Below are positions 5,246 through 63,655 of a stretch of DNA of 64,000 nucleotides, one piece after another. Positions within the stretch are counted from its first letter, which is position 1; each line of letters starts with the position of its first letter. Source of the DNA: a bacterium (GTDB lineage Bacteria; Patescibacteriota; Patescibacteriia; Magasanikbacterales; GWA2-37-8). Under the pieces are notes generated by a model, which saw only the letters and a program-made list of their open reading frames with translations, searched no databases and had not been told where the DNA came from. Location: contig JBDROJ010000023.1 in NCBI GenBank assembly GCA_043810165.1, positions 4,675 to 68,674 of the forward strand, given 5' to 3'. A program made the translations under genes and the position numbers.

Positions 5246-5722
5246 ATGGGAGAAATCACCATAAGACAATACAAGGATTCTGACAAGGATAAGATATGGG
5301 ATTTACATATTAAAGTTCTGGAAGACGCTGGTGCGTTGGCTGATAGTGGGCCATGGGATGATGATTTGAAAAATATACAACATGAGTATATTAGTGGTGG
5401 CGGTACTTTTTTAGTAGGTTTATCAGGTGACGAAATAGTGGTGATGGGAGCCTTAAAGGTTGTAGATAATAATAATGTTGAAATAAAAAGGATGAGAGTG
5501 TTACCAAAATATCAGAGAAAAGGTTTGGGTCAGTTAATGTTGGATAAATTAGAAGAGAAAGCCGTTGGTAGTGGTTATAATCAAATTCAGCTAGACACAA
5601 CAGATAAACAAATAGCAGCTCAAAATTTTTATGTTAAAAATGGATACAAAGAAGTGAGCCGTATTAAAGGAAAAAAGTTTGAAAGCATAATTTACAAAAA
5701 GAATTTAGTGGCTGGTATATAG
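5246..5722 (+). CDS. GNAT-family N-acetyltransferase
   Basis: Track ORF 5186..5722 trimmed to the ATG at 5246 (MGEITIRQYK...). Contains the acetyl-CoA-binding motif RVLPKYQRKGLGQLML. Confidence 0.75.
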   Translation: MGEITIRQYKDSDKDKIWDLHIKVLEDAGALADSGPWDDDLKNIQHEYISGGGTFLVGLSGDEIVVMGALKVVDNNNVEIKRMRVLPKYQRKGLGQLMLDKLEEKAVGSGYNQIQLDTTDKQIAAQNFYVKNGYKEVSRIKGKKFESIIYKKNLVAGI

Positions 5723-5810
5723 TGTGGAAGGGGTGTGTACAAAACTAGACTCACCTAACCTTGCACAAATCCCCAACAATCCCAGTTCGCACGTCCTCCA
5801 CTACCCCGCT
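5714..5810 (+). repeat. intergenic repeat family, copy A (~95 bp; contains the 28-mer cagttcgcacgtcctccactaccccgct)
   Basis: Near-identical to 7543-7634 and shares the perfect 28-mer with 6750-6777. Begins at the stop codon of the GNAT gene and is followed by T7. Confidence 0.8.
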
Positions 5811-5854: not shown

Positions 5855-6109
5855 ATGACCATACAGCAATTTATAAAAAAGAGACCATATCTGGTTTGGT
5901 ATACAAAGAATTATGATGAACTCTCTGAAGATGCGATTTTAGAAGCCACTCTTAACTACGGTGATTTTGATGATGTTAAAAAAATGGTAAAAATATTGGG
6001 CATGAGAAAGGCGGCTGATATATTTAAAAAGAAAAATAAACAGAAAAGAAATAATTTCAAACCCCAAGTGTCTCATTATTTTAAATTGTTTTTTAAGCAA
6101 CATGCATAA
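5855..6109 (+). CDS. small protein (84 aa) upstream partner of the AbiEii-like nucleotidyltransferase; putative antitoxin/partner
   Basis: Overlaps the downstream gene by 8 nt (ATGCATAA). No recognisable domain by eye. Confidence 0.45.
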   Translation: MTIQQFIKKRPYLVWYTKNYDELSEDAILEATLNYGDFDDVKKMVKILGMRKAADIFKKKNKQKRNNFKPQVSHYFKLFFKQHA

Positions 6110-6716
6110 AGAAGTATTGAACCAAAAACAAACAGAACTACTACCTTTATTAAAGAAGTTTAATAAAGATTTTGGTTTAGTTGGTGGTACAGCTATCGCC
6201 TTACAACTTGGTCATCGTCAATCAATAGATTTTGATCTGTTTTCTAATAAGCCAATTAAGCCGAGTGATATTCGACGTAAGATAAAAGGAGTTGCTAATA
6301 TAGATAAGGTATTAATTAATGAGAAAGATGAGTATACGGTTATTGTCAATGGGGTAAAAATTACTTTTCTTTTTTATCCATTTAAAATAAAATTTTCTAA
6401 ATCGTTGTCAAATATTATAAAATTACCTGATCTAAAAACATTGGCAGCAATGAAGGCATATGCCCTAGGTAGGCGAGCTAAATGGAAAGATTATGTTGAC
6501 CTATATTTTATTATGAAAGATAAGTATGGTATAAAATCGGTGACGAAAAAGGCCAAACAGATTTTTGAAGAAGAATTTAATGAGAAGATATTTAGAATAC
6601 AATTAAGTTATTTTAAAGATATTGATTATACTGAAAAAGTAGAATATACCAACGATCAGAAAACACCAGATTCAGTTATCAAAAAAGAATTAAAAGATAT
6701 CAGTTTAAAAATTTAA
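6102..6716 (+). CDS. nucleotidyltransferase, AbiEii/AbiGii-toxin-like family (DUF1814-type)
   Basis: GGTAIALQLGHRQSIDFDLF matches the GS...D.D nucleotidyltransferase signature of the AbiEii family. 204 aa. Confidence 0.6.
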   Translation: MHKEVLNQKQTELLPLLKKFNKDFGLVGGTAIALQLGHRQSIDFDLFSNKPIKPSDIRRKIKGVANIDKVLINEKDEYTVIVNGVKITFLFYPFKIKFSKSLSNIIKLPDLKTLAAMKAYALGRRAKWKDYVDLYFIMKDKYGIKSVTKKAKQIFEEEFNEKIFRIQLSYFKDIDYTEKVEYTNDQKTPDSVIKKELKDISLKI

Positions 6717-6729
6717 AGTTCCTAGTACT

Positions 6730-6813
6730 ACACCTATTAGGAACTATTTCAGTTCGCACGTCCTCCACTACCCCGCTCATACGAAAATATAGCTAAAACA
6801 AGCGGTATTTTTT
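6730..6813 (+). repeat. intergenic repeat family, copy B (perfect 28-mer plus terminator-like tail)
   Basis: cagttcgcacgtcctccactaccccgct at 6750-6777, then catacgaaaata...aagcggtattttttt as in copy C. Confidence 0.8.
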
Positions 6814-7420: not shown

Positions 7421-7530
7421 GAGGTGTCTGAATGTAAAAAATGGGAGGGCAACAAAGACCCGCCCCATGTCTGGTATCGCCAGCACGGGCGGGCAGACAC
7501 ATTTCCACCTAATCAAGGTGTTTTTTTTTA
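7421..7530 (+). ncRNA. GC-rich nested-stem element plus intrinsic terminator (candidate structured RNA or 3' UTR element)
   Basis: Outer stem gtgtctg(7424-7430)/cagacac(7494-7500). Inner stem cccgccc(7459-7465)/gggcggg(7487-7493) enclosing the hairpin ctgg-tatcg-ccag. Then cacct-aatca-aggtg + T9. GC-rich, unlike its surroundings. Confidence 0.4.
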
Positions 7531-7542
7531 ATCTAAAAATAT

Positions 7543-7672
7543 ATAGTGTGGAAGGGGTGTATGTAAAACCAAATTCACCTAACCTTACACAAATTATCCA
7601 TCACCCCAGTTCGCACGTCCTCCACTACCCCGCTCATACGAAAATACCGCTATAATAAGCGGTATTTTTGGT
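7543..7672 (+). repeat. intergenic repeat family, copy C (full length, with terminator hairpin ataccgct-ataataa-gcggtat + T-run)
   Basis: Aligns by eye with copy A over ~95 bp and with copy B over the 28-mer and tail. Confidence 0.8.
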
Positions 7673-7680
7673 TATTGTAG

Positions 7681-8322
7681 CTATAGTTGGTTTATTAGGT
7701 CGTAATTAATTTCTTTAATACTGCTTAACACTCGTGTAGCCAGACTAAAATCATTGTTTTTAGTATGCTTATTGGGGATGGCTATACTTTTCATACCAGC
7801 ACGATGAGCTGCCACTATACCTTTTTGAGCATCTTCTAAAACCAGGCAATTTTTTGGATCTATGTTCAGATCGTTGCTGGCCGTTAAGAATATCTCGGGA
7901 TCAGGTTTGTCTTTAGAAATTTGTTCGGCAGTTACTATAGTTGAAAAGTATTTTTTTAAGTTATTTGAACCTAATACTATATTTACAGCCATTTTTGATG
8001 AGCTGGTAGCTAAACCTAATTCAAATTTTTGCTTCAGCAGTCTAATTGTTTGGCTAACACCTGGAAACAGTCGAGCTTTTTCTTTGAGTATTTTTTTATA
8101 TAATTTCTTTTTTTCTTGGTAAACCATATTTGTATCTAAGTCTATTTTTTCTTGTTTTACGTATTTGTGTACATCTAATCCCTGGGTCGTAAAGTATTTG
8201 TAGAAATTTTTATCGCTTAGTTCAACTCCAAATTTTTTGAGAGTGGTTGTGTAGCAATAACACTGCAAAGGTTCGCTGTCAACGATTAGACCGTCCATGT
8301 CGAATATAATAGCTTTTATCAT
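7681..8322 (-). CDS. HAD-IA family hydrolase (beta-phosphoglucomutase/phosphatase-like)
   Basis: N-terminal IIFDMDGLIVDSE (DxDG) motif and C-terminal LVLEDAQKGIVAAHRAGM, typical of HAD-IA enzymes. Confidence 0.75.
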   Translation of the reverse strand: MIKAIIFDMDGLIVDSEPLQCYCYTTTLKKFGVELSDKNFYKYFTTQGLDVHKYVKQEKIDLDTNMVYQEKKKLYKKILKEKARLFPGVSQTIRLLKQKFELGLATSSSKMAVNIVLGSNNLKKYFSTIVTAEQISKDKPDPEIFLTASNDLNIDPKNCLVLEDAQKGIVAAHRAGMKSIAIPNKHTKNNDFSLATRVLSSIKEINYDLINQL

Positions 8323-8352: not shown

Positions 8353-8616
8353 TTGTATACTATTTTTAAATTACACACAAAATTGACTGCTAATTTTGTT
8401 TGTTTAAAAAGAATTAAGGTTGACGGGATCTCAGTCAGCCAGGTAGCTGATGAGCACGGTATTAGACCAAACACAATTTACACCTGGTTGGCTAAAGGCG
8501 TTAACAACGCACCAACCTGGAGTGAGGTATCTAAATTAAAAAAAGAAAACAAGATGTTATTAGAGCTTGTCGGAGAAATTACTGTTAAACTTAGTCAGTC
8601 CCAAAAAAAGAATTAG
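8353..8616 (+). pseudogene. IS3-family transposase OrfA remnant (HTH domain, N-terminus not conserved)
   Basis: See the mobile element entry. Confidence 0.5.
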
Positions 8617-8618
8617 TT

Positions 8619-9170
8619 ATGAATGGTCCTAACAAGACCAAGCTGGCTGAGATGATGGGAGTTTCAAGACGATTATTGTATTATGACCACAAACAACCAA
8701 ATAAAGATTGGGAGTTAAAGACCAGGATAGAACTAGCCTTGCAAAACCATCCTAGCTATGGACACAAAAGACTAGCCACCTATTTAGGCAGAAACAAAAA
8801 AGCAGTACTAAGAGTGATGAATATGTTTGGCATTAAGCCATACCGACGAAAAGGCAAAAAATACAAGTATATTAAGCTAAAAAAGGATAAGATATTTACC
8901 AACCTGCTTTTTGAAGACAAACCACAGTGTCCCAATCACATCTGGGCTTCTGACTTTACCCACATAGCTAAGTTTAACAATAAGTGGGTTTATCTGGCCA
9001 CTATACTAGATTTATTCACTAGAAAGATTGTAGGTTTTAGTATTCTAATGAATCACAGTAACCAACTGGTTATAGAAGCTTTGCTAATGGCCATATTTAC
9101 AAATAATCTAGCAAGAGTTAATTCAAAGACAGCCCAAATAGGTTGTCTTTTTAGTAACTCCAGCACATGA
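8619..9170 (+). pseudogene. IS3-family transposase OrfB, 3'-truncated (integrase core incomplete)
   Basis: HTH_21-like N-terminus and the first DDE motif region are present; the rest of the catalytic core is missing. Confidence 0.55.
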
Positions 9171-9523: not shown

Positions 9524-9597
9524 GCGGTAGTAGCTCAGTTGGCTAGAGTGTTTCCTTGCCAAGGAAAAGGTCGCCGGTTCGAATCCGGTCTACCGCT
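9524..9597 (+). tRNA. tRNA-Gly (anticodon GCC)
   Basis: Acceptor GCGGTAG/CTACCGC, D-arm TAGCTCAGTTGGCTAGAG, anticodon stem TTTCC/GGAAA with loop TTGCCAA, T-loop GTTCGAATC. Confidence 0.85.
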
Positions 9598-9649: not shown

Positions 9650-9721
9650 CGCGGGGTAGAGCAATGGCAGCTCGGCGGGCCCATAACCCGCAGGTTCCCG
9701 GTTCGAGTCCGGGCCCCGCAA
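9650..9721 (+). tRNA. initiator tRNA-fMet (anticodon CAU) with the C1:A72 mismatch and three G-C pairs at the base of the anticodon stem
   Basis: CGCGGGG...GGGCCCATAACCCGC...GTTCGAGTCCGGGCCCCGCA+A closely parallels bacterial initiator tRNA. Unpaired C1/A72 and the GGG/CCC anticodon-stem end are the initiator hallmarks. Confidence 0.85.
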
Positions 9722-12289: not shown

Positions 12290-12416
12290 ATTGGTTTCAT
12301 TATAACATCTTTTAGCAGAAAAGTAGAGATTGGTCGTTGACCAAATGTAATTATTATGGTATTAATTTGATTAGATTCCTAGATAACACAACCAATGGTT
12401 TGATAAGGATATAAAG

Positions 12417-12953
12417 ATGACAAGACCTGATGATCTGATTGTTAATACTTGGCCTACAGATACTAGGGTTTGTGTTGATGCAAATGGCGTGGTGCGCGCC
12501 ATCACCCTTAGTCTTATGCCCGGTTTGAGGGACAGAGTTGGCATGGATGCGGATTACGATACCTATCGGCGATTGGGCAAAGATGGGAGGTATCGTAGAG
12601 TGCACAATCTGTACGGGGCCTGCCGTGCTCATCGTTATGCATCTGAATTTGAGTTGAATGATGAACGTCTGTCAGTCCGTGGTATTGAGATATGCAATGA
12701 TTTGGGGGTAAGATTGGTCGGGATTGGCAGTCACACGACAGATGAACGGCTGATCACCGAGATTCTGTACCCAGTTCAACGACAATTGTTGATTCTCAAG
12801 CGCGTCTATGACGATCAAAAAGTCAAAGCGCGTTGTCACTTTGAACGCATGGCCGATCTTAAGGATAGCCGTGGGCGGGATAACCCCGGTGCCAAACGGG
12901 TCAGTGGTGTGGTCGCGCGTGTTGCATGGGATAGAAGGTCGGCAAATATTTGA
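12417..12953 (+). CDS. hypothetical protein (178 aa) in GC-rich island B
   Basis: SD (aagga, 7 nt) before the ATG. Protein-like composition. Overlapping alternative-frame ORFs on both strands make the call uncertain. Confidence 0.35.
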   Translation: MTRPDDLIVNTWPTDTRVCVDANGVVRAITLSLMPGLRDRVGMDADYDTYRRLGKDGRYRRVHNLYGACRAHRYASEFELNDERLSVRGIEICNDLGVRLVGIGSHTTDERLITEILYPVQRQLLILKRVYDDQKVKARCHFERMADLKDSRGRDNPGAKRVSGVVARVAWDRRSANI

Positions 12954-12989
12954 CGCATCCAACCATGGCTTAAGTTCTATGACGAGGCC

Positions 12990-13412
12990 ATGCGTGCCAG
13001 GATCATGCAAATTCAATGGCACTTGGAGCAGGCTCGTGGTGTGTATTCTCAAATCAAGAGTTGGTATTGGCAACGTGGGTATGATAATCGCCTTCAGTTC
13101 AAAGATCGAGACGCCATGCTGGTCAAGCTTCGCTACCACATTAGCCGGCTTAACATCAAGCCATACAGGCGGCATTACTTGCATCTATGGAAAGAAGCTG
13201 AAATCATGCAAAATTGTTCTGGGCATGATTGGTATGATCTTTGGGATATGGCTGACCGCGGTTTTCAATCTGCAGGGTTGATGCTGGCGCGTAAGCGGTT
13301 AGAGTTGGCCAAGATGCATCTGCGACTGGCTGGATTAGGCTCTGCAGTGTATGTAGCCTTGTTACCCACCTGTTTTTTTCTAAGCCTAGTACATATGTAC
13401 GGTACCGGGTAA
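12990..13412 (+). CDS. hypothetical protein (140 aa) with a C-terminal hydrophobic segment, island B
   Basis: gaggcc-ATG SD-like context. GC-rich. Follows the previous ORF after a 36-nt gap. Confidence 0.3.
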   Translation: MRARIMQIQWHLEQARGVYSQIKSWYWQRGYDNRLQFKDRDAMLVKLRYHISRLNIKPYRRHYLHLWKEAEIMQNCSGHDWYDLWDMADRGFQSAGLMLARKRLELAKMHLRLAGLGSAVYVALLPTCFFLSLVHMYGTG

Positions 13413-13523
13413 GCCAGTCCGGGCAACCAAAATTCCAAGGAGGTTGTCACCAGCCTCCGCCATTTGTCATAAATTTTTATGACAAGCGGTTGATGCTGGT
13501 GGCAAAATTTTTTTAGATATCAA

Positions 13524-13556
13524 AAAACACTCGGAGATATTCTTGAGTGTTTTTTA
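13524..13556 (+). terminator. intrinsic terminator (aacactc-ggagatattctt-gagtgtt + T-run)
   Basis: 7-bp stem followed by ttttttattt. Confidence 0.5.
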
Positions 13557-13708
13557 TTTATACGGATTTTGTTTTCTCGGTCTAATACTCCTTATTACAA
13601 AGTACCAAAGAATATTAGCGGACCGAGATAAAGCAAAAACCTTACACCCAATCCGCCTCAACCCTATGTTTTTGTTGAAGTTTTTTGGGCGTGATCCGAG
13701 GGAGTGTT

Positions 13709-14047
13709 TTATTTTTCTACCTCCTCGGACTTGGCCAGCTCGGCGTTGATTTTGGCGGACAGCCATGGAGCCAGCTGATCCACCACGATGTCCTTGGCCA
13801 CTCCGATGACCTCCGGGTAGTGTTGGCTCAGGAATTCCTTGATTTTCTTTCTCACTGTCTCGTACTGGGCTTCACCGCCGGCGTTGCCGTTGTCGGTCAG
13901 GTCCATATCAAATTGCTTTTCAGGCCAGTCAGACTCAGGCTTGTTGTCCACCTGCGCCCAGAAGGTTACTCTGGCCTGTTCTTTTTTTTCTCCGAACTTT
14001 TTGAGCTCAATTTTTTGACTAATTAGAGCTGAAAGTATTGGAATCAT
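13709..14047 (-). CDS. hypothetical acidic protein (112 aa), GC-rich, canonical SD
   Basis: AAGGAG 7 nt before the ATG at 14047. Protein-like sequence. The opposite-strand ORF 13685..14026 is rejected. Confidence 0.5.
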   Translation of the reverse strand: MIPILSALISQKIELKKFGEKKEQARVTFWAQVDNKPESDWPEKQFDMDLTDNGNAGGEAQYETVRKKIKEFLSQHYPEVIGVAKDIVVDQLAPWLSAKINAELAKSEEVEK

Positions 14048-14169
14048 GTTGAATGCTCCTTCACATAGGGTAATTATAGGCTAGCAGAAAAAACAGGTCA
14101 TGTAAAGCCCTGAACTCGGGATCCTGTGGATTAAATAAAATCGTTTTTTGTGTTATACTATTACTTGTT

Positions 14170-29009: not shown

Positions 29010-29651
29010 TTAACTAGATATTAATTTTTTAACCGCTTCTTTTATATTATCAGCGCCCATTAAAGCACTGCCCACATTGAATATTTCCACTCCCCAGGAT
29101 TTTACTTCAGCAATAGTGTTTTGATTAATTCCGCCATCCACGGCTATTACTGGGTGGTTTGGTATTTTTGCAAATTCAATTATTTTGCTTTTCATTTCAG
29201 GCAGGAAAGGTGATCCTTGCCGGCCTGGATAAACAGTCATGAATAGAACTTGATCAATTTGACCTAGGTAAGGTTCTAATATCGCAATAGGTGTATCAGG
29301 ATTAAGAGCGATTCCTGCTTGCCAGTTGTTTTGTTTTATCTGTTTAATTACTTGGATTGGATCATCTTGGGATTCAATATGAAATACTACTCGAAAGACG
29401 TTTTTTATTGATTTCCATTGCTTTAATTCATTGAGAGGGTGATTGACCATCAAATGTAATTCATAATTTAAATACTGATTTAAATACTGATTTAAATCAG
29501 TATTTTCTTCCGCATGATTAAATGATTTATTGGGAACAAAATCACCATCCATTATATCCAATTGTATGTAATCAAAGAGCCGTTCCACTTGTTTAAGTTG
29601 TTTTTCTAGTTGATCGTAGTTGTCTACTAATATTGTCGGAACTATTTTCAT
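29010..29651 (-). CDS. rpe: ribulose-phosphate 3-epimerase
   Basis: IQLDIMDG and VDGGIN motifs. Contains an in-frame tandem LNQYLNQYLN repeat. Confidence 0.85.
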   Translation of the reverse strand: MKIVPTILVDNYDQLEKQLKQVERLFDYIQLDIMDGDFVPNKSFNHAEENTDLNQYLNQYLNYELHLMVNHPLNELKQWKSIKNVFRVVFHIESQDDPIQVIKQIKQNNWQAGIALNPDTPIAILEPYLGQIDQVLFMTVYPGRQGSPFLPEMKSKIIEFAKIPNHPVIAVDGGINQNTIAEVKSWGVEIFNVGSALMGADNIKEAVKKLISS

Positions 29652-33590: not shown

Positions 33591-34556
33591 ATGTTAACAG
33601 TAAAACAAATTTTTGAGTTGGGAATACAAATGGGAATTAAAGCCGATCCAAGGGGTATGAACGGAGTTAAGGAATACTTGGAACGGATAAAAAAGGGATA
33701 TGGTGATTTAAAGCCCAAAGACAAGAAATATTTTGACAAGGAGAGATTGGTTAATCCTTATTCAGATAGTCAAATTCATTTAAGCGATGGGAAAACCACA
33801 GTCAAACGAGTGATGGCCGGTATAGATATTGATGAAGGAGAAATTTTGTTAGCCAGTCAATTGAATGAAAGAGATAAAAAAATAGATCTGGTAATTTCTC
33901 ACCATCCCATTGGAAAAGGTTTGGCTGACCTGCATGCAGTTATGGATTTGGTGGTTGAAATTTATGAGCAGAATGGCGTGCCCGTGCATGTGGCTGAGAA
34001 ATTGATGGAAGAGAGGATTAAAGAGGTTGGCAGAGGCGTGCATCCGGTTAATCATTATCAAGTTATTGATATTGCGCGTTTATTGAAGTTAAATTTAATT
34101 AATACTCATACTATTACTGATAATCTGGTCAATGATTACCTGGTTAAGTATTTAGCTAAGAAAAAACCGCGTACAATCGGAGATTTGGTCGATGCTTTAT
34201 TGGAAATTCCAGAATATGATGAAGCTAAAAAGCGAGGAGCCGGGCCAAGTATTTTCGCTGGTGACCCAAGACATCGCGTGGGTAAATATTTAATGGAGAT
34301 GACCGGTGGTACTAGCCCGTCTGATAAAGTTTATAAAGAGTTGTCGCGATATGGTATCAGCACTGTGGTGGGCATGCATATGAGGGATGCGGCCAGAGAA
34401 AATGCCAGTGAACATCATATGAATGTTGTGATTGCAGGTCATATTGCTTCTGATTCTTTGGGCATGAATTTATTTTTGGATGAATTGGAAAAAAATGGAA
34501 TTGATGTTGTGCCAGTGGGAGGGTTGATCCGTATCAGTAGAGTGAAGAAGAAATAG
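33591..34556 (+). CDS. Nif3-like dinuclear metal center protein (GTP cyclohydrolase 1 type 2 / YqfO family)
   Basis: Two signature metal-binding motifs: VISHHP and IAGHIASDSLG. Confidence 0.8.
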   Translation: MLTVKQIFELGIQMGIKADPRGMNGVKEYLERIKKGYGDLKPKDKKYFDKERLVNPYSDSQIHLSDGKTTVKRVMAGIDIDEGEILLASQLNERDKKIDLVISHHPIGKGLADLHAVMDLVVEIYEQNGVPVHVAEKLMEERIKEVGRGVHPVNHYQVIDIARLLKLNLINTHTITDNLVNDYLVKYLAKKKPRTIGDLVDALLEIPEYDEAKKRGAGPSIFAGDPRHRVGKYLMEMTGGTSPSDKVYKELSRYGISTVVGMHMRDAARENASEHHMNVVIAGHIASDSLGMNLFLDELEKNGIDVVPVGGLIRISRVKKK

Positions 34557-34574
34557 AATATAATTTTTTTATTA

Positions 34575-34760
34575 TCTCAGATAAATACCAAGTTTTTATT
34601 GATATGTATCTTAAATTAGTCGAGATAGATATTGATTTATAAAGCGCCAACCGCATCCCGACTGGGTCGGGATGATGTCCGACCAAATGTAGGGCTAAAT
34701 CTTGGCGCAAGTAAATCAATATCTATGAGAATAATTTGAAAACTTGGTATTTATCCGAGA
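34575..34760 (+). ncRNA. 186-bp triply nested inverted-repeat element with a GC-rich apical core (candidate rod-like structured RNA or miniature mobile element)
   Basis: Outer 22-bp inverted repeat (34575-34596 / 34739-34760, 21/22 match). Inner 14-bp inverted repeat (34625-34638 / 34713-34726). Core 7-bp stem gcgccaa/ttggcgc (34644-34650 / 34702-34708) enclosing the hairpin cccgac-tgg-gtcggg. Confidence 0.45.
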
Positions 34761-34771
34761 TATATCCACTT

Positions 34772-35344
34772 ATGATTTCATATATTCAGGGAAAAATAAT
34801 TGAAAAAAGTTTATCTGCTCTAACGGTTTTAACTTCTGGTGGGGTAGGTTATGATGTAAGCATAAAGCCGACTGCTTTGGACAAATATAAGATAGGTGAT
34901 GAAGTGCAGATGCCGACTTTTTTGGCAGTGGGCGAAAGCATGCTTGATTTATATGGTTTTGAAAATTCAGCAGAACGAGAGTTGTTTATTCACTTTAAAA
35001 GCGTGTCTGGAATTGGACCTAAATCAGCTTTGCATTTATTGTCTTTGGGCACGGTTGAAGAGATAACAGGCGCCATCAGTGCCGGAGATGTTGAATATTT
35101 GACCAAAGTCAGCGGAGTGGGGAGGAAAACCGCTGAACGCGTGGTAGTGGAATTAAAATCAAAGATGGGAGATATGACCTTGGGCAGTTTAAGCCCGCAG
35201 AATGAGAGTCTTGGAGACGTTGTTGATGGTTTGGTGGCCATGGGATATTCTATGTTGCAAGCCAGAGAATCTGTAAGATCTTTGCAAGCAGACGGAAAGA
35301 GTACAGAACAGATCATGAGGGAGGCTCTGCAGAAAATGAAGTAG
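34772..35344 (+). CDS. ruvA: Holliday junction branch migration protein RuvA
   Basis: MISYIQGKII start; HhH motifs (IGPKSALHLLS, VSGVGRKTAERVV). The track N-terminal extension overlaps the inverted-repeat arm and is rejected. Confidence 0.85.
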   Translation: MISYIQGKIIEKSLSALTVLTSGGVGYDVSIKPTALDKYKIGDEVQMPTFLAVGESMLDLYGFENSAERELFIHFKSVSGIGPKSALHLLSLGTVEEITGAISAGDVEYLTKVSGVGRKTAERVVVELKSKMGDMTLGSLSPQNESLGDVVDGLVAMGYSMLQARESVRSLQADGKSTEQIMREALQKMK

Positions 35345-35360
35345 AATTGTAAGATATATA

Positions 35361-35394
35361 AAAAATCGCCCGAATTCAATCCGGGCGATTTTAA
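35361..35394. terminator. bidirectional terminator aaatcgcccg-aattcaat-cgggcgattt
   Basis: 10-bp stem between convergent ruvA and pyrF. Confidence 0.6.
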
Positions 35395-47410: not shown

Positions 47411-48118
47411 TTATAGGTTAGTTATTGTTTTTAAAAGTTGAATAGCCTGCATTTTCATTATATCAATTTTACAATCTACCAGCAAATAATGAATGACCGT
47501 GCTTCTGTCTGAAAATATTTTTCTGTAAGTCTCGGAACGATATTCATCAACCAATTTTTTTTGAAATTCCAAGTTTTCAAATATGGCATCATCTTGTTTG
47601 TTATTCCTTTGTCGCAAACGTTCAAAGGCTTGTTCAGCTTGAAGATCTAATAATACTAGATGGTCAGGCGCGTATTTTAAAGCTATTTCATTGCCAGATA
47701 ATTTTTTTAATTCTTCAATTGTCAGACCGTTGTCTTGGGTAGTTTGATAGGCAAAAGTGGTGCTTACTCCTCGGTCTTGGATGATAGTTTTACCTTGCGC
47801 GTGCAAGGGGATTATAAGTTTTTTATATAATTCAAGACGATCAAGCGAATAGGCCATGGCAATTGATTGGGCAGAAAAACTTTTTTTATTATTTATTTTT
47901 TTATCTCTGATATCCAAGCCAGCATGCGTATATGTTGGTTCGCAACTAAAGATCACATCAAATGGCTCTAGTTTTTTGAGTTCAGGATGAGCGTGGTGCT
48001 CAATCCAATATTCTTTTAAATCAAAGATCTTTTTGCCTTGTTCTGTCAGGTATTCTTTCCAAGTATTTAGAATAGTGCTTTTGCCACTGCCGTCAATTCC
48101 ATCTATCATTATGAACAT
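47411..48118 (-). CDS. thymidylate kinase-like P-loop nucleotide kinase
   Basis: P-loop IDGIDGSGKST and a DRGVSTTFAYQ segment resembling the dTMP-kinase DRY region. Placed next to folA and thyA. Confidence 0.55.
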   Translation of the reverse strand: MFIMIDGIDGSGKSTILNTWKEYLTEQGKKIFDLKEYWIEHHAHPELKKLEPFDVIFSCEPTYTHAGLDIRDKKINNKKSFSAQSIAMAYSLDRLELYKKLIIPLHAQGKTIIQDRGVSTTFAYQTTQDNGLTIEELKKLSGNEIALKYAPDHLVLLDLQAEQAFERLRQRNNKQDDAIFENLEFQKKLVDEYRSETYRKIFSDRSTVIHYLLVDCKIDIMKMQAIQLLKTITNL

Positions 48119-48615: not shown

Positions 48616-48713
48616 TTAGTCAGAGAGATACAATACTTCTACGAAACATTCCGCAGATCCGACCGGAGCATGGGCGGGGACGTTGAGGAGAGGTATTGTA
48701 TCTCTCTGACAGG
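48616..48713. repeat. 18-bp perfect inverted repeat (gtcagagagatacaatac / gtattgtatctctctgac; extendable to ~22 bp with wobble pairs) enclosing a GC-rich 48-56 nt core, between thyA and folA
   Basis: Read directly from the sequence. The core ccgcagatccgaccggagcatgggcgggga resembles the cores at 34651-34675 and 7457-7494 by eye. Confidence 0.6.
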
Positions 48714-59017: not shown

Positions 59018-59117
59018 CTTCAGCTCTCCACTTCTGATGGTTGTTAAGAATAGCAATCACCAGAAGAGAGCTGAAGTTGTAATTAAAAAATACCGATTAT
59101 GTCGGTATTTTTTTTGT
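59018..59117 (+). terminator. long interrupted hairpin (cttcagctctc...gagagctgaag, ~16 bp) followed by the intrinsic terminator aataccga-ttat-tcggtatt + T9
   Basis: Read directly from the sequence, downstream of 58508..58975. Confidence 0.55.
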
Positions 59118-62026: not shown

Positions 62027-62195
62027 TTAAGGCACTGTCGCCAAATACCATTTTGACTAAAAATTACATATTTCGGCCATAATTTCTGAAAAATTTTTTA
62101 GCTTAGCTAAGGCTAAACCGTAAAATTTGTTCAAAAATTCTGGCTCAAAATCTAAAATTTTTATTTCAAAAACGTATTTGGCGACAGTGCCTTAA
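62027..62195. repeat. 169-bp element bounded by perfect 22-bp terminal inverted repeats (ttaaggcactgtcgccaaatac / gtatttggcgacagtgccttaa) with an AT-rich interior
   Basis: Read directly from the sequence. MITE-like architecture. The interior contains a TTGACT - 18 nt - CATAAT promoter-like motif. Confidence 0.6.
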
Positions 62196-62307: not shown

Positions 62308-62337
62308 CAAATACCAAGTTCATAAACTTGGTATTTG
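62308..62337. repeat. 13-bp perfect hairpin caaataccaagtt-cataa-aacttggtatttg sharing its 12-mer arms with the outer inverted repeat of the 34575-34760 element
   Basis: aaataccaagtt and aacttggtattt occur at both loci. Could also act as the Fic terminator. Confidence 0.55.
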
Positions 62338-62587: not shown

Positions 62588-63655
62588 TTATTTAAAATAA
62601 TTCGCAACCGCAAATTCAATCTGTTCGATAAATATTTTTTTAATATAAGTAATATTATTTTGTTCATAAAATAATAACATAGCTTTCTTATATTCTATAG
62701 CATCAACATTTCTATAAGATAGCATTGGACATTGATTGGCGTGTAGAATAGCATTAGCAATTATACGAGAAGTCCTTTTATTCCCATCTTCAAAAGGTTG
62801 AATATAGGCGATCATAATTAGAAAAACAAAAGCCTTAAGAAAATGATTATTAGTTTTATCTATTTTTTCTGTCAAACAATTAATAGCCTGTTCAATTTTA
62901 TCTTTTTTTGACAATGGCCTGTAAAGAGTCCCTGTAATTCCAACTGAACGATTGCGAAAGTCAGTTTTTATTTCAATTCCTTGAACTAGCGATGAATGAA
63001 TTTCTTTTATTTTACTAATATTAATCTTCTTATTAAAATGGTTAGGTCTTAACAGAATGTAGTCCAAAACTTTTTTATGATTCAATATCATTTGAGCTTC
63101 GGTCTTATTTTTACCTTTGGCAAAAGACATATCTTTAATAAGAAATTCTGTTTCCAATAAAGTATATGTATTGCCTTCTATTTCTGAAGATTTCCATGAC
63201 AAATCAATAACAAGACGCTCCCATTCTTTCTTGAAAATAGTCGAACTTTCTTTTTTTAAAGAATTCACAGTTTTATTATATTTAACTTCAGCTTTTTTGA
63301 GTCTCTCATATTCTTCTTTTGAAAAAACATCCTCTGACAATTGGTTAATTATATCCCTGTCAAAAAAAGGTTTTGCATTTCTTTCACCATGATGAATTGA
63401 AAAATATGTATTCACATCATATTCTTTAATAAGTAAATATTTTTTTGATATTTGATAAGAGACACCACGTCCTTTCCCTTCTTTAGTTAATATTAATTTT
63501 TTAGTTAATAGAGACAAATCTCGAACAATGGTCAATCTTTCAACATCAAATTTGTCTTTTAGATATGCTAAAATATCCTTGGTTTGAAAGGATTTTGTTT
63601 GTTCTGCAAATTTTATTATTTTCTTTTGCCTATTATTTAATTTATCAATATCCAT
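62588..63655 (-). CDS. Fic/DOC-family protein with an N-terminal winged-helix domain
   Basis: Fic motif HPFEDGNKRTSR (matching HPFx[D/E]GNGR). Confidence 0.85.
   Translation of the reverse strand: MDIDKLNNRQKKIIKFAEQTKSFQTKDILAYLKDKFDVERLTIVRDLSLLTKKLILTKEGKGRGVSYQISKKYLLIKEYDVNTYFSIHHGERNAKPFFDRDIINQLSEDVFSKEEYERLKKAEVKYNKTVNSLKKESSTIFKKEWERLVIDLSWKSSEIEGNTYTLLETEFLIKDMSFAKGKNKTEAQMILNHKKVLDYILLRPNHFNKKINISKIKEIHSSLVQGIEIKTDFRNRSVGITGTLYRPLSKKDKIEQAINCLTEKIDKTNNHFLKAFVFLIMIAYIQPFEDGNKRTSRIIANAILHANQCPMLSYRNVDAIEYKKAMLLFYEQNNITYIKKIFIEQIEFAVANYFK

Follow-up and report, generated by a model that had tools for sequence, protein, structure and literature searches.

The element described here lies between a NIF3/DUF34-like gene and ruvA in the 64-kb window, by which we mean the whole 64,000-nucleotide stretch of DNA that was analysed. 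The NIF3-like gene (33591-34556, plus strand) encodes a protein of 321 amino acids with a weak match to Pfam PF01784, and its orthologues stand directly 5′ of ruvA in relatives. Its TAG stop codon is found 16 nt before an imperfect palindrome of 190 bp (34573-34762), called the rod below, which occupies most of the 215-nt spacer that separates the gene from ruvA (34772-35344, plus strand, 190 amino acids). The true start of ruvA is the ATG at 34772, since the protein read from it begins MISYIQGKII and is 100% identical to the public annotation (MFH1291947.1; 190 aa), and RuvA homologues start with MIS(Y/L) at the same point. The open reading frame listing had begun the gene at a TTG at 34736, inside the right arm of the rod, and the initial annotation was right to regard the resulting N-terminal extension as an artefact, for which the rod accounts. 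Besides this false extension, the only open reading frame that touches the rod is a 61-aa TTG-initiated frame on the minus strand (34534-34719) that starts in the rod interior and extends into the NIF3-like gene at its 3′ end. A canonical bidirectional terminator is located 3′ of ruvA at 35361-35393. A replication terminus or dif site at the strand switch at 35.35 kb was considered and rejected, because the skews merely follow gene orientation and the spacer between ruvA and pyrF is a bidirectional terminator of the ordinary kind.

Architecture and folding of the rod

The rod is built of nested inverted repeats around an apex of 51 nt. Its outer left arm, the terminal inverted repeat TATCTCAGATAAATACCAAGTTTT (34573-34596), holds the 12-mer AAATACCAAGTT at 34583-34594 and faces the outer right arm AAAACTTGGTATTTATCCGAGATA (34739-34762); the two arms of 24 nt are 96% complementary, with a single mismatch that is A.C on the plus strand and G.U on the minus strand. 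Next to the left arm lies a segment of 16 nt, TATTGATATGTATCTT (34597-34612), opposite which the right arm has a single C, and both the self-alignment of the arms and the MFE structure place a one-sided bulge at this point. A short helix, AAATTA/TAATTT (34613-34618 / 34732-34737), is followed by a degenerate non-complementary block (GTCGAG versus TTCTC), by a perfect inner stem of 15 bp between ATAGATATTGATTTA (34625-34639) and its 100% complementary partner TAAATCAATATCTAT (34712-34726), and by a GC closing stem of 7 nt, GCGCCAA/TTGGCGC (34644-34650 / 34702-34708), again with 100% complementarity. In the apex, a hairpin of 9 bp with the loop TGG, CATCCCGAC-TGG-GTCGGGATG (34654-34674), is adjacent to a second predicted hairpin (34677-34695), and the GC-rich core as a whole (34644-34708, 60% GC) is predicted to form a three-way junction. 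The triply nested structure with a 51-nt GC-rich apex reported earlier is thus present, with stems of 24 (one mismatch), 15 and 7 bp rather than 22, 14 and 7 bp.

The GC content is 57% in the apex (34651-34701), 21-24% in the arms and 37% in the whole window. The rod interior has no terminal repeats of its own and begins with the 16-nt left-only segment. A TAT at 34570-34572 directly abuts the left terminal repeat and pairs with the TAT at 34763-34765, which directly abuts the right one. These trinucleotides are a possible target-site duplication, or else a duplicated TA may be hidden in the outermost TA of each arm; however, the TAT flanks are a 3-nt repeat in AT-rich DNA and are too short to be told from chance.

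A concern with any palindrome on a contig from a single metagenome-assembled genome, of which the collections hold no second assembly of the same organism, is that it could be an assembly artefact formed by a chimeric inverted junction. We regard this as most improbable. Artefactual fold-backs are normally perfect and found at contig ends, whereas the palindrome described here is internal, short and imperfect, with a unique non-palindromic centre, and both flanking genes are intact and have normal ends.

Folded as RNA, the rod has a free energy of -79.6 kcal/mol on the plus strand (z = -10.7) and of -77.9 kcal/mol on the minus strand (z = -9.9), and on either strand 0 of 200 shuffles were as stable. 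The core by itself folds at -30.3 kcal/mol (z = -3.3 on the plus strand, z = -3.4 on the minus strand), and its MFE structure makes up 31% of the ensemble. One reading of such a fold is that the rod is a lineage-specific functional structured RNA, either a small RNA or an intercistronic cis-element involved in processing, stability, attenuation or translational coupling; its function would reside in the GC-rich three-way-junction apex, and the AT-rich stem would serve to present this apex. This possibility is supported by the GC-rich core in AT-rich surroundings (57-60% versus 21-24%), which is a classic structural-RNA signature, by the well-defined core fold, by the alternation of perfect helices with discrete internal loops, and by the slight excess of G.U pairs on the sense strand (3 versus 1 on the other strand). 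Against it, both strands fold nearly equally well, and the small number of G.U pairs together with this near-equal stability argues for a palindrome at the level of the DNA rather than for strand-specific selection on an RNA. We consider a functional RNA to be a possible but rather unlikely explanation, and further observations that bear on it are given below.

A consensus scan called no sigma-70-type promoter in or beside the rod, and a scan of 34300-35000 found no intrinsic terminator; no U-run follows the rod stem, the tail of which is TATCCACTT. The lack of a promoter or terminator of its own also speaks against a functional RNA. The rod itself was rejected as an intrinsic terminator because it does not combine a G+C-rich stem with a short loop and a T run. 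A weak promoter-like geometry, TTGAAA-17 nt-GATATA (34736-34764, plus strand), is found 7 nt before the ruvA ATG, with the TTGAAA at the inner edge of the right arm. Its -10 element GATATA is poor and the consensus scan did not call it, and TTGAAA-17-GATATA-7-ATG is at most a weak candidate for a ruvA promoter. The same geometry precedes ruvA in two related loci, as TTGAAA-17-TATTAT-9-ATG in L004 and as TTGAAT-17-TAGGAT-9-ATG in L002. In L002 and L004 (3960-4000), ruvA lacks a NIF3-like gene upstream and has a canonical TTGAA(A/T)-17-TA..AT promoter that ends 9 nt before the ATG. The positions of these promoters suggest that ruvA mRNAs in these bacteria may be leaderless or near-leaderless.

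It had also been proposed that the rod is a 6S-like or other extended-hairpin non-coding RNA. At gathering thresholds, the Rfam search of the whole window returned 3 tRNAs only, and at E≤1 it returned nothing relevant; at E≤10, just two chance-level matches (E = 1.8 and 5.4), both to eukaryotic families, were obtained at the rod locus. Ribozymes, riboswitches, SRP RNA and tRNA-like RNAs were rejected, as none gave a relevant Rfam match, and the absence of any such match is a further point against a functional RNA. A divergent 6S RNA gene, whose product of about 190 nt would mimic an open promoter and sequester RNA polymerase, is brought to mind by the 190-nt size of the rod and by the extended hairpin shape that it has in common with 6S RNA (RF00013). 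However, neither RF00013 nor any other 6S family matched either strand at E≤10, and perfect helices of 15-24 bp are atypical of 6S RNA. The rod does not have the central bubble of 6S RNA; in its MFE and centroid structures the sole large loop is a bulge of 15-16 nt on the 5′ side only, and no two-sided central bubble is formed. The rod also differs from a 6S gene in having no promoter or terminator of its own and in its lack of conservation, being absent at this locus in relatives. The proposal of a 6S RNA is not borne out by these observations, and we would give it hardly any weight.

Related loci, further copies and other structured elements

RuvA and ThyA relatives point to a Magasanikbacteria-like member of the Candidate Phyla Radiation. 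The RuvA cluster at 90% has MFH1291947.1 as its single NCBI member, the next-best RuvA is only 65% identical, and the next-best ThyA only 80%. In 8 related loci the gap between the NIF3-like gene and ruvA is 2-5 nt, and the junction is as a rule tight and probably translationally coupled. Three other loci have unrelated spacers, which in L010 is 120 nt with an ordinary terminator, in L031 (70-125) two GTAC-rich palindromes of 24 nt each, and in L034 (445-565) 121 nt of short tandem repeats. None of the 12 related loci examined has the rod at this position, which is a point against a functional RNA, and the surrounding gene order is otherwise kept in the relative contig JBDRCM010000039.1. The spacing of 2-5 nt in relatives thus makes the rod a lineage-specific insertion, and in this respect the comparison of the ruvA upstream regions upholds the suggestion in the initial annotation that the element was inserted, although the relatives behind this contrast of filled and empty sites are distant (at most 65% RuvA identity). 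From the compared loci, the rod is best described as a recent lineage-specific insertion that would have brought in about 215 bp of new spacer, of which 190 bp is self-complementary, and not as a conserved RNA gene of this locus.

In L004, a palindromic unit ending in AATTCACCTAAT is found in two copies within 8.5 kb, at 2186-2292 and 7908-7983. The small repeats that L031, L034 and L004 each have of their own indicate that this phylum does have families of small palindromic repeats.

No second copy of the rod was found in the 64-kb window, where a sensitive BLAST with the spacer as query recovered only the spacer itself, its reverse complement and short words expected by chance. The rod, its core and the full terminal repeat were also without a copy in the other fetched loci (320 kb); with the loci that had been selected by the arm pattern set aside, the rod, its core, and the two other hairpin elements described below likewise gave no significant match. 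Distant BLAST against phage and plasmid records gave chance matches alone (E≥0.2), core and arm patterns had zero matches in viral contigs, and a 25-mer of the core was absent from the metagenome contig collection. A 19-nt match at 47564-47582 was rejected as a rod copy, since it lies within the tmk coding sequence (FENLEF) and is due to chance; the enrichment of the 10-mer AAATACCAAG was similarly rejected as a sign of extra copies, because two of the additional sites are coding (K-Y-Q and T-K-Y codons). In the data at hand the rod is therefore a single-copy orphan, and its mobility is unproven.

An element of the same architecture is present at the thyA-folA junction, where a hairpin of 93 nt (48619-48711) has a perfect AT-rich stem of 18 bp (22 pairs counting G.U) and a GC-rich core. 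Relatives have thyA-folA spacers of 3 nt (L038), 67 nt (L036 and L037) and 85 nt (L035), all without structure. On this comparison the hairpin is a lineage-specific element that has the architecture of the ruvA rod and an unrelated sequence. Its existence would favour a functional RNA; however, the operon's antisense strand gives the more stable fold of this hairpin (-49.8 kcal/mol, versus -41.1 kcal/mol on the sense strand), which counts against one. A second rod of 169 nt (62027-62195, z = -12.6) has perfect terminal arms of 22 bp starting with TTAAGG, and is much more stable on the minus strand, the sense strand of the neighbouring genes (-82 versus -66 kcal/mol). It is located at the edge of a region of 27.5% GC with a gene for a Fic/DOC protein (62588-63655). 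The sequence ATTTGGCGACAG..CCTTA is common to the right arm of this rod and to L038:126-145 (nhmmer E = 0.001), a match that is non-syntenic and whose downstream protein is without a homologue in the window. The rod at ruvA has no significant similarity to this second rod. The motifs that the initial annotation took to be common to the apex and to the elements at 48616-48713 and 7421-7530 are at chance level (local alignment versus shuffles, p = 0.30-0.62 and p = 0.13-0.66), and the cores of the ruvA, thyA-folA and 7421-7530 elements have no significant similarity.

The window holds several other regions of unusual composition or structure. A repeat family of 84-95 nt, 83-85% identical and holding CAGTTCGCACGTCCTCCACTACCCCGC, with a terminator-like hairpin at its end, occurs at 5716-5810, 6729-6812 and 7540-7669; its members stand between small gene cassettes in a layout that resembles a cassette array, an AbiEii toxin being encoded by one of these cassettes (6102-6716), and the family had no match in viral contigs. 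The GC-rich element at 7421-7530 stands just before the third copy. A GC-rich island at 650-2250 reaches 63% GC in 150-nt windows and contains segments that are strongly structured (z to -4.8) as well as three long hairpins (1150-1205, 1404-1440 and 1928-1982); the island has no Rfam match and its 199-aa open reading frame (543-1142) no Pfam match, and it is probably foreign DNA beside the tRNA gene at 2364-2435. A further GC-rich patch (12400-14050, 45.5% GC) has overlapping open reading frames on both strands without Pfam matches, and contains a hairpin with 30-nt arms at 13444-13505 that is followed by a T run. At 8353-9170, just upstream of two tRNA genes (9524-9597 and 9650-9721), lies a remnant of an IS3-family transposase that consists of an HTH_Tnp_1 open reading frame and a truncated rve integrase core.

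The arm 12-mer and the shared hairpin base

The 12-mer of the rod arm had been noted to recur as the arm of a simple hairpin at 62308-62337, and it does so as AAATACCAAGTT-CATA-AACTTGGTATTT at 62309-62336. As the window contains only 17 perfect inverted repeats of at least 12 bp with a spacer of at most 200 nt, a shared stem 12-mer would be unlikely under a naive model. The hairpin at 62309 belongs, however, to a terminator-like class with an AAATAC...GTATTT base, of which short-loop members are found at four sites in the window (7642-7667, 29470-29505 with starts at 29470 and 29482, 59088-59110 and 62309-62336). This amounts to 5 overlapping matches in the window compared with 0.5 expected, and the motif is also present in both rods. 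GGTATTT is 2.5-fold over-represented in the window. The AAATAC...GTATTT base looks like the convention of this genome for terminator-like hairpins, and because it is shared by these hairpins only about 5-6 further bases are specifically common to the rod arm and the 62309 hairpin. We estimate the chance probability of their sharing the 12-mer at about 0.01. Since the likeness ends after 12-13 nt, the 62309 hairpin did not arise by deletion from the full 24-nt ends.

In metagenomes the exact arm palindrome, with a loop of 0-30 nt, gave 15 matches on unrelated AT-rich contigs, mostly in terminator-like hairpins of the A-tract/T-tract type. A specific family of target sites defined by the arm palindrome was rejected on the grounds that these matches are all unrelated AT-rich hairpins. 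The claim that the arms are a pre-existing palindromic target is a weak one: the 12-mer does recur once as a hairpin, whereas the hairpin is of a generic class with 15 unrelated metagenomic matches and the rod interior is not bounded by terminal repeats. Judged from these base patterns, the outer stem resembles the base of a generic terminator-like hairpin more than it does a dedicated target for insertion. REP/BIME units and terminator-like hairpins resemble the rod in this, its outer stem standing on the AAATAC...GTATTT base of four other window hairpins; the rod differs from them in that its loop is structured and 142 nt long, compared with 4-10 nt, and in that no U-run follows the stem. 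No RAYT or other REP-associated transposase was seen among the selected open reading frames of the window that were scanned.

A generic hairpin base under the outer stem is what would be expected if the palindrome had grown locally from an AAATAC...GTATTT hairpin, with template switching during replication or fold-back inverted duplication extending and homogenising its arms. That hairpins can be created and expanded by template switching has been documented (PMC8794818, PMC13100816). The perfect patches of 24, 15 and 7 bp between non-complementary blocks and the one-sided 16-nt indel have the pattern of patchwise arm conversion, and the several unrelated long hairpins, together with the 169-nt rod at 62027-62195, suggest a genome-wide tendency and not one mobile family. 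Long hairpins are commoner in the window than in about 85 kb of related loci. Local growth nevertheless leaves the origin of the 51-nt GC-rich non-palindromic centre unexplained, it would have had little local template, as relatives have only 2-5 nt at the junction, and no donor sequence was found nearby. We consider such an origin unlikely.

Comparison with mobile repeats and proposed consequences for the mRNA

Our results are explained best, if tentatively, by a lineage-specific MITE-like palindromic insertion of the Correia/ERIC kind, or the decayed remnant of one, that is co-transcribed as an intercistronic hairpin; we would stop a little short of calling this probable. The fit to a MITE rests on near-perfect terminal repeats of 24 bp, TA/TAT flanks, a length of 190 bp, the lack of coding capacity, AT-rich arms, symmetry at the DNA level and absence from relatives. 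The properties by which MITEs are recognised include terminal inverted repeats (here 24 nt, 96%), a length of about 50-500 bp without coding capacity (here 190 bp) and filled and empty orthologous sites, all of which are found. The genome also contains IS remnants (8353-9170), and the thyA-folA hairpin is located at a second tight operon junction, both of which favour a MITE-like insertion. No cognate autonomous element was found, as the IS3-like remnant is the sole transposase remnant of the window and is without similarity to the rod ends. This lack of an autonomous element with matching ends, the lack of a second copy and the shortness of the TAT flank all count against the MITE-like reading. 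It would also be unusual for a MITE to have a well-folding core of 57-60% GC with arms of 21-24% GC, and to have perfect stems split by fully mismatched blocks. This GC contrast and block pattern could be due to selection on an RNA.

Among known repeats, the CREE/NEMIS elements of Neisseria and the ERIC/IRU elements of enterobacteria are most like the rod. They are non-coding intergenic insertions of 100-190 bp with terminal inverted repeats of about 25 bp beginning with TA, stand between genes that are transcribed together, and form long hairpins in the RNA. In contrast to the one copy of the rod visible in 64 kb, CREE and ERIC have tens to hundreds of copies per genome. The rod also has no sequence similarity to them and no recognised IHF-like central site, and its interior is itself palindromic with a GC-rich core. 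Integron attC sites were rejected, since the arms (...CCAAGTTTTTA and ...AAAACTTGG) do not fit GTTRRRY of the RYYYAAC ... GTTRRRY core sites and the neighbours are housekeeping genes in conserved order. Correia elements (CREE) can create promoters at their ends, and their hairpins in mRNAs are cut or bound by RNase III (PMC2649163).

A possible course of events for a MITE-like rod is that a non-autonomous element was inserted into a NIF3-ruvA junction of 2-5 nt. Since no promoter or terminator was detected and the co-oriented neighbours are adjacent in relatives, the rod is most likely part of the NIF3-ruvA mRNA, in which the base of the long hairpin would rejoin the two cistrons. In the folded rod, the distance through space from the stop codon of NIF3 to the start of ruvA would be about 25 nt, and this bringing together of the rod ends may be the reason that the insertion is tolerated. 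The hairpin could serve in the mRNA as a double-stranded target of RNase III or could hold up exonucleases, it might act as a weak terminator, and it may supply the -35-like TTGAAA for ruvA. The origin by transposition, the co-transcription and the effects on the mRNA are what we infer from the arrangement of the locus.

In the AT-rich mitochondrial genomes of fungi, mobile GC clusters and double-hairpin elements are short stretches of GC-rich DNA that fold into one or two hairpins. They occur in the very AT-rich spacers of compact genomes, vary between close lineages and make up multi-copy families with shared sequence. The rod is like them in that its core has two adjacent GC-rich hairpins; it differs in that the three GC-rich cores of the window are not significantly similar to each other, in its bacterial host and in the placement of its core inside an AT-rich stem of about 70 bp. 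A more speculative reading, which we judge improbable, is that the host carries an undescribed class of sequence-heterogeneous hairpin insertions, each with a perfect AT-rich stem and a folded GC-rich core, that colonise junctions that are tight in relatives. Such insertions could be a bacterial counterpart of the mitochondrial elements or else lineage-specific modules of structured RNA, of recent origin, that punctuate polycistronic mRNAs. The sites of the proposed class would be NIF3-ruvA and thyA-folA (3 nt in the nearest relative), and the 169-nt rod at 62027 might be a further example.

The rod is a real and statistically robust structure outside the known RNA families, and it is most like a MITE or a Correia-type intergenic repeat. 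The genomes of the Candidate Phyla Radiation are tiny and tightly packed and are thought to be repeat-poor, and full-text searches for MITEs in this group and for non-coding RNA or 6S RNA in Patescibacteria gave no description of such elements. If the rod is mobile, it would be among the early palindromic repeats or MITEs to be documented in a genome of the Candidate Phyla Radiation. It also illustrates how an insertion of 190 nt can be tolerated between two almost-overlapping cistrons, as the fold of the RNA would keep the genes adjacent in space.
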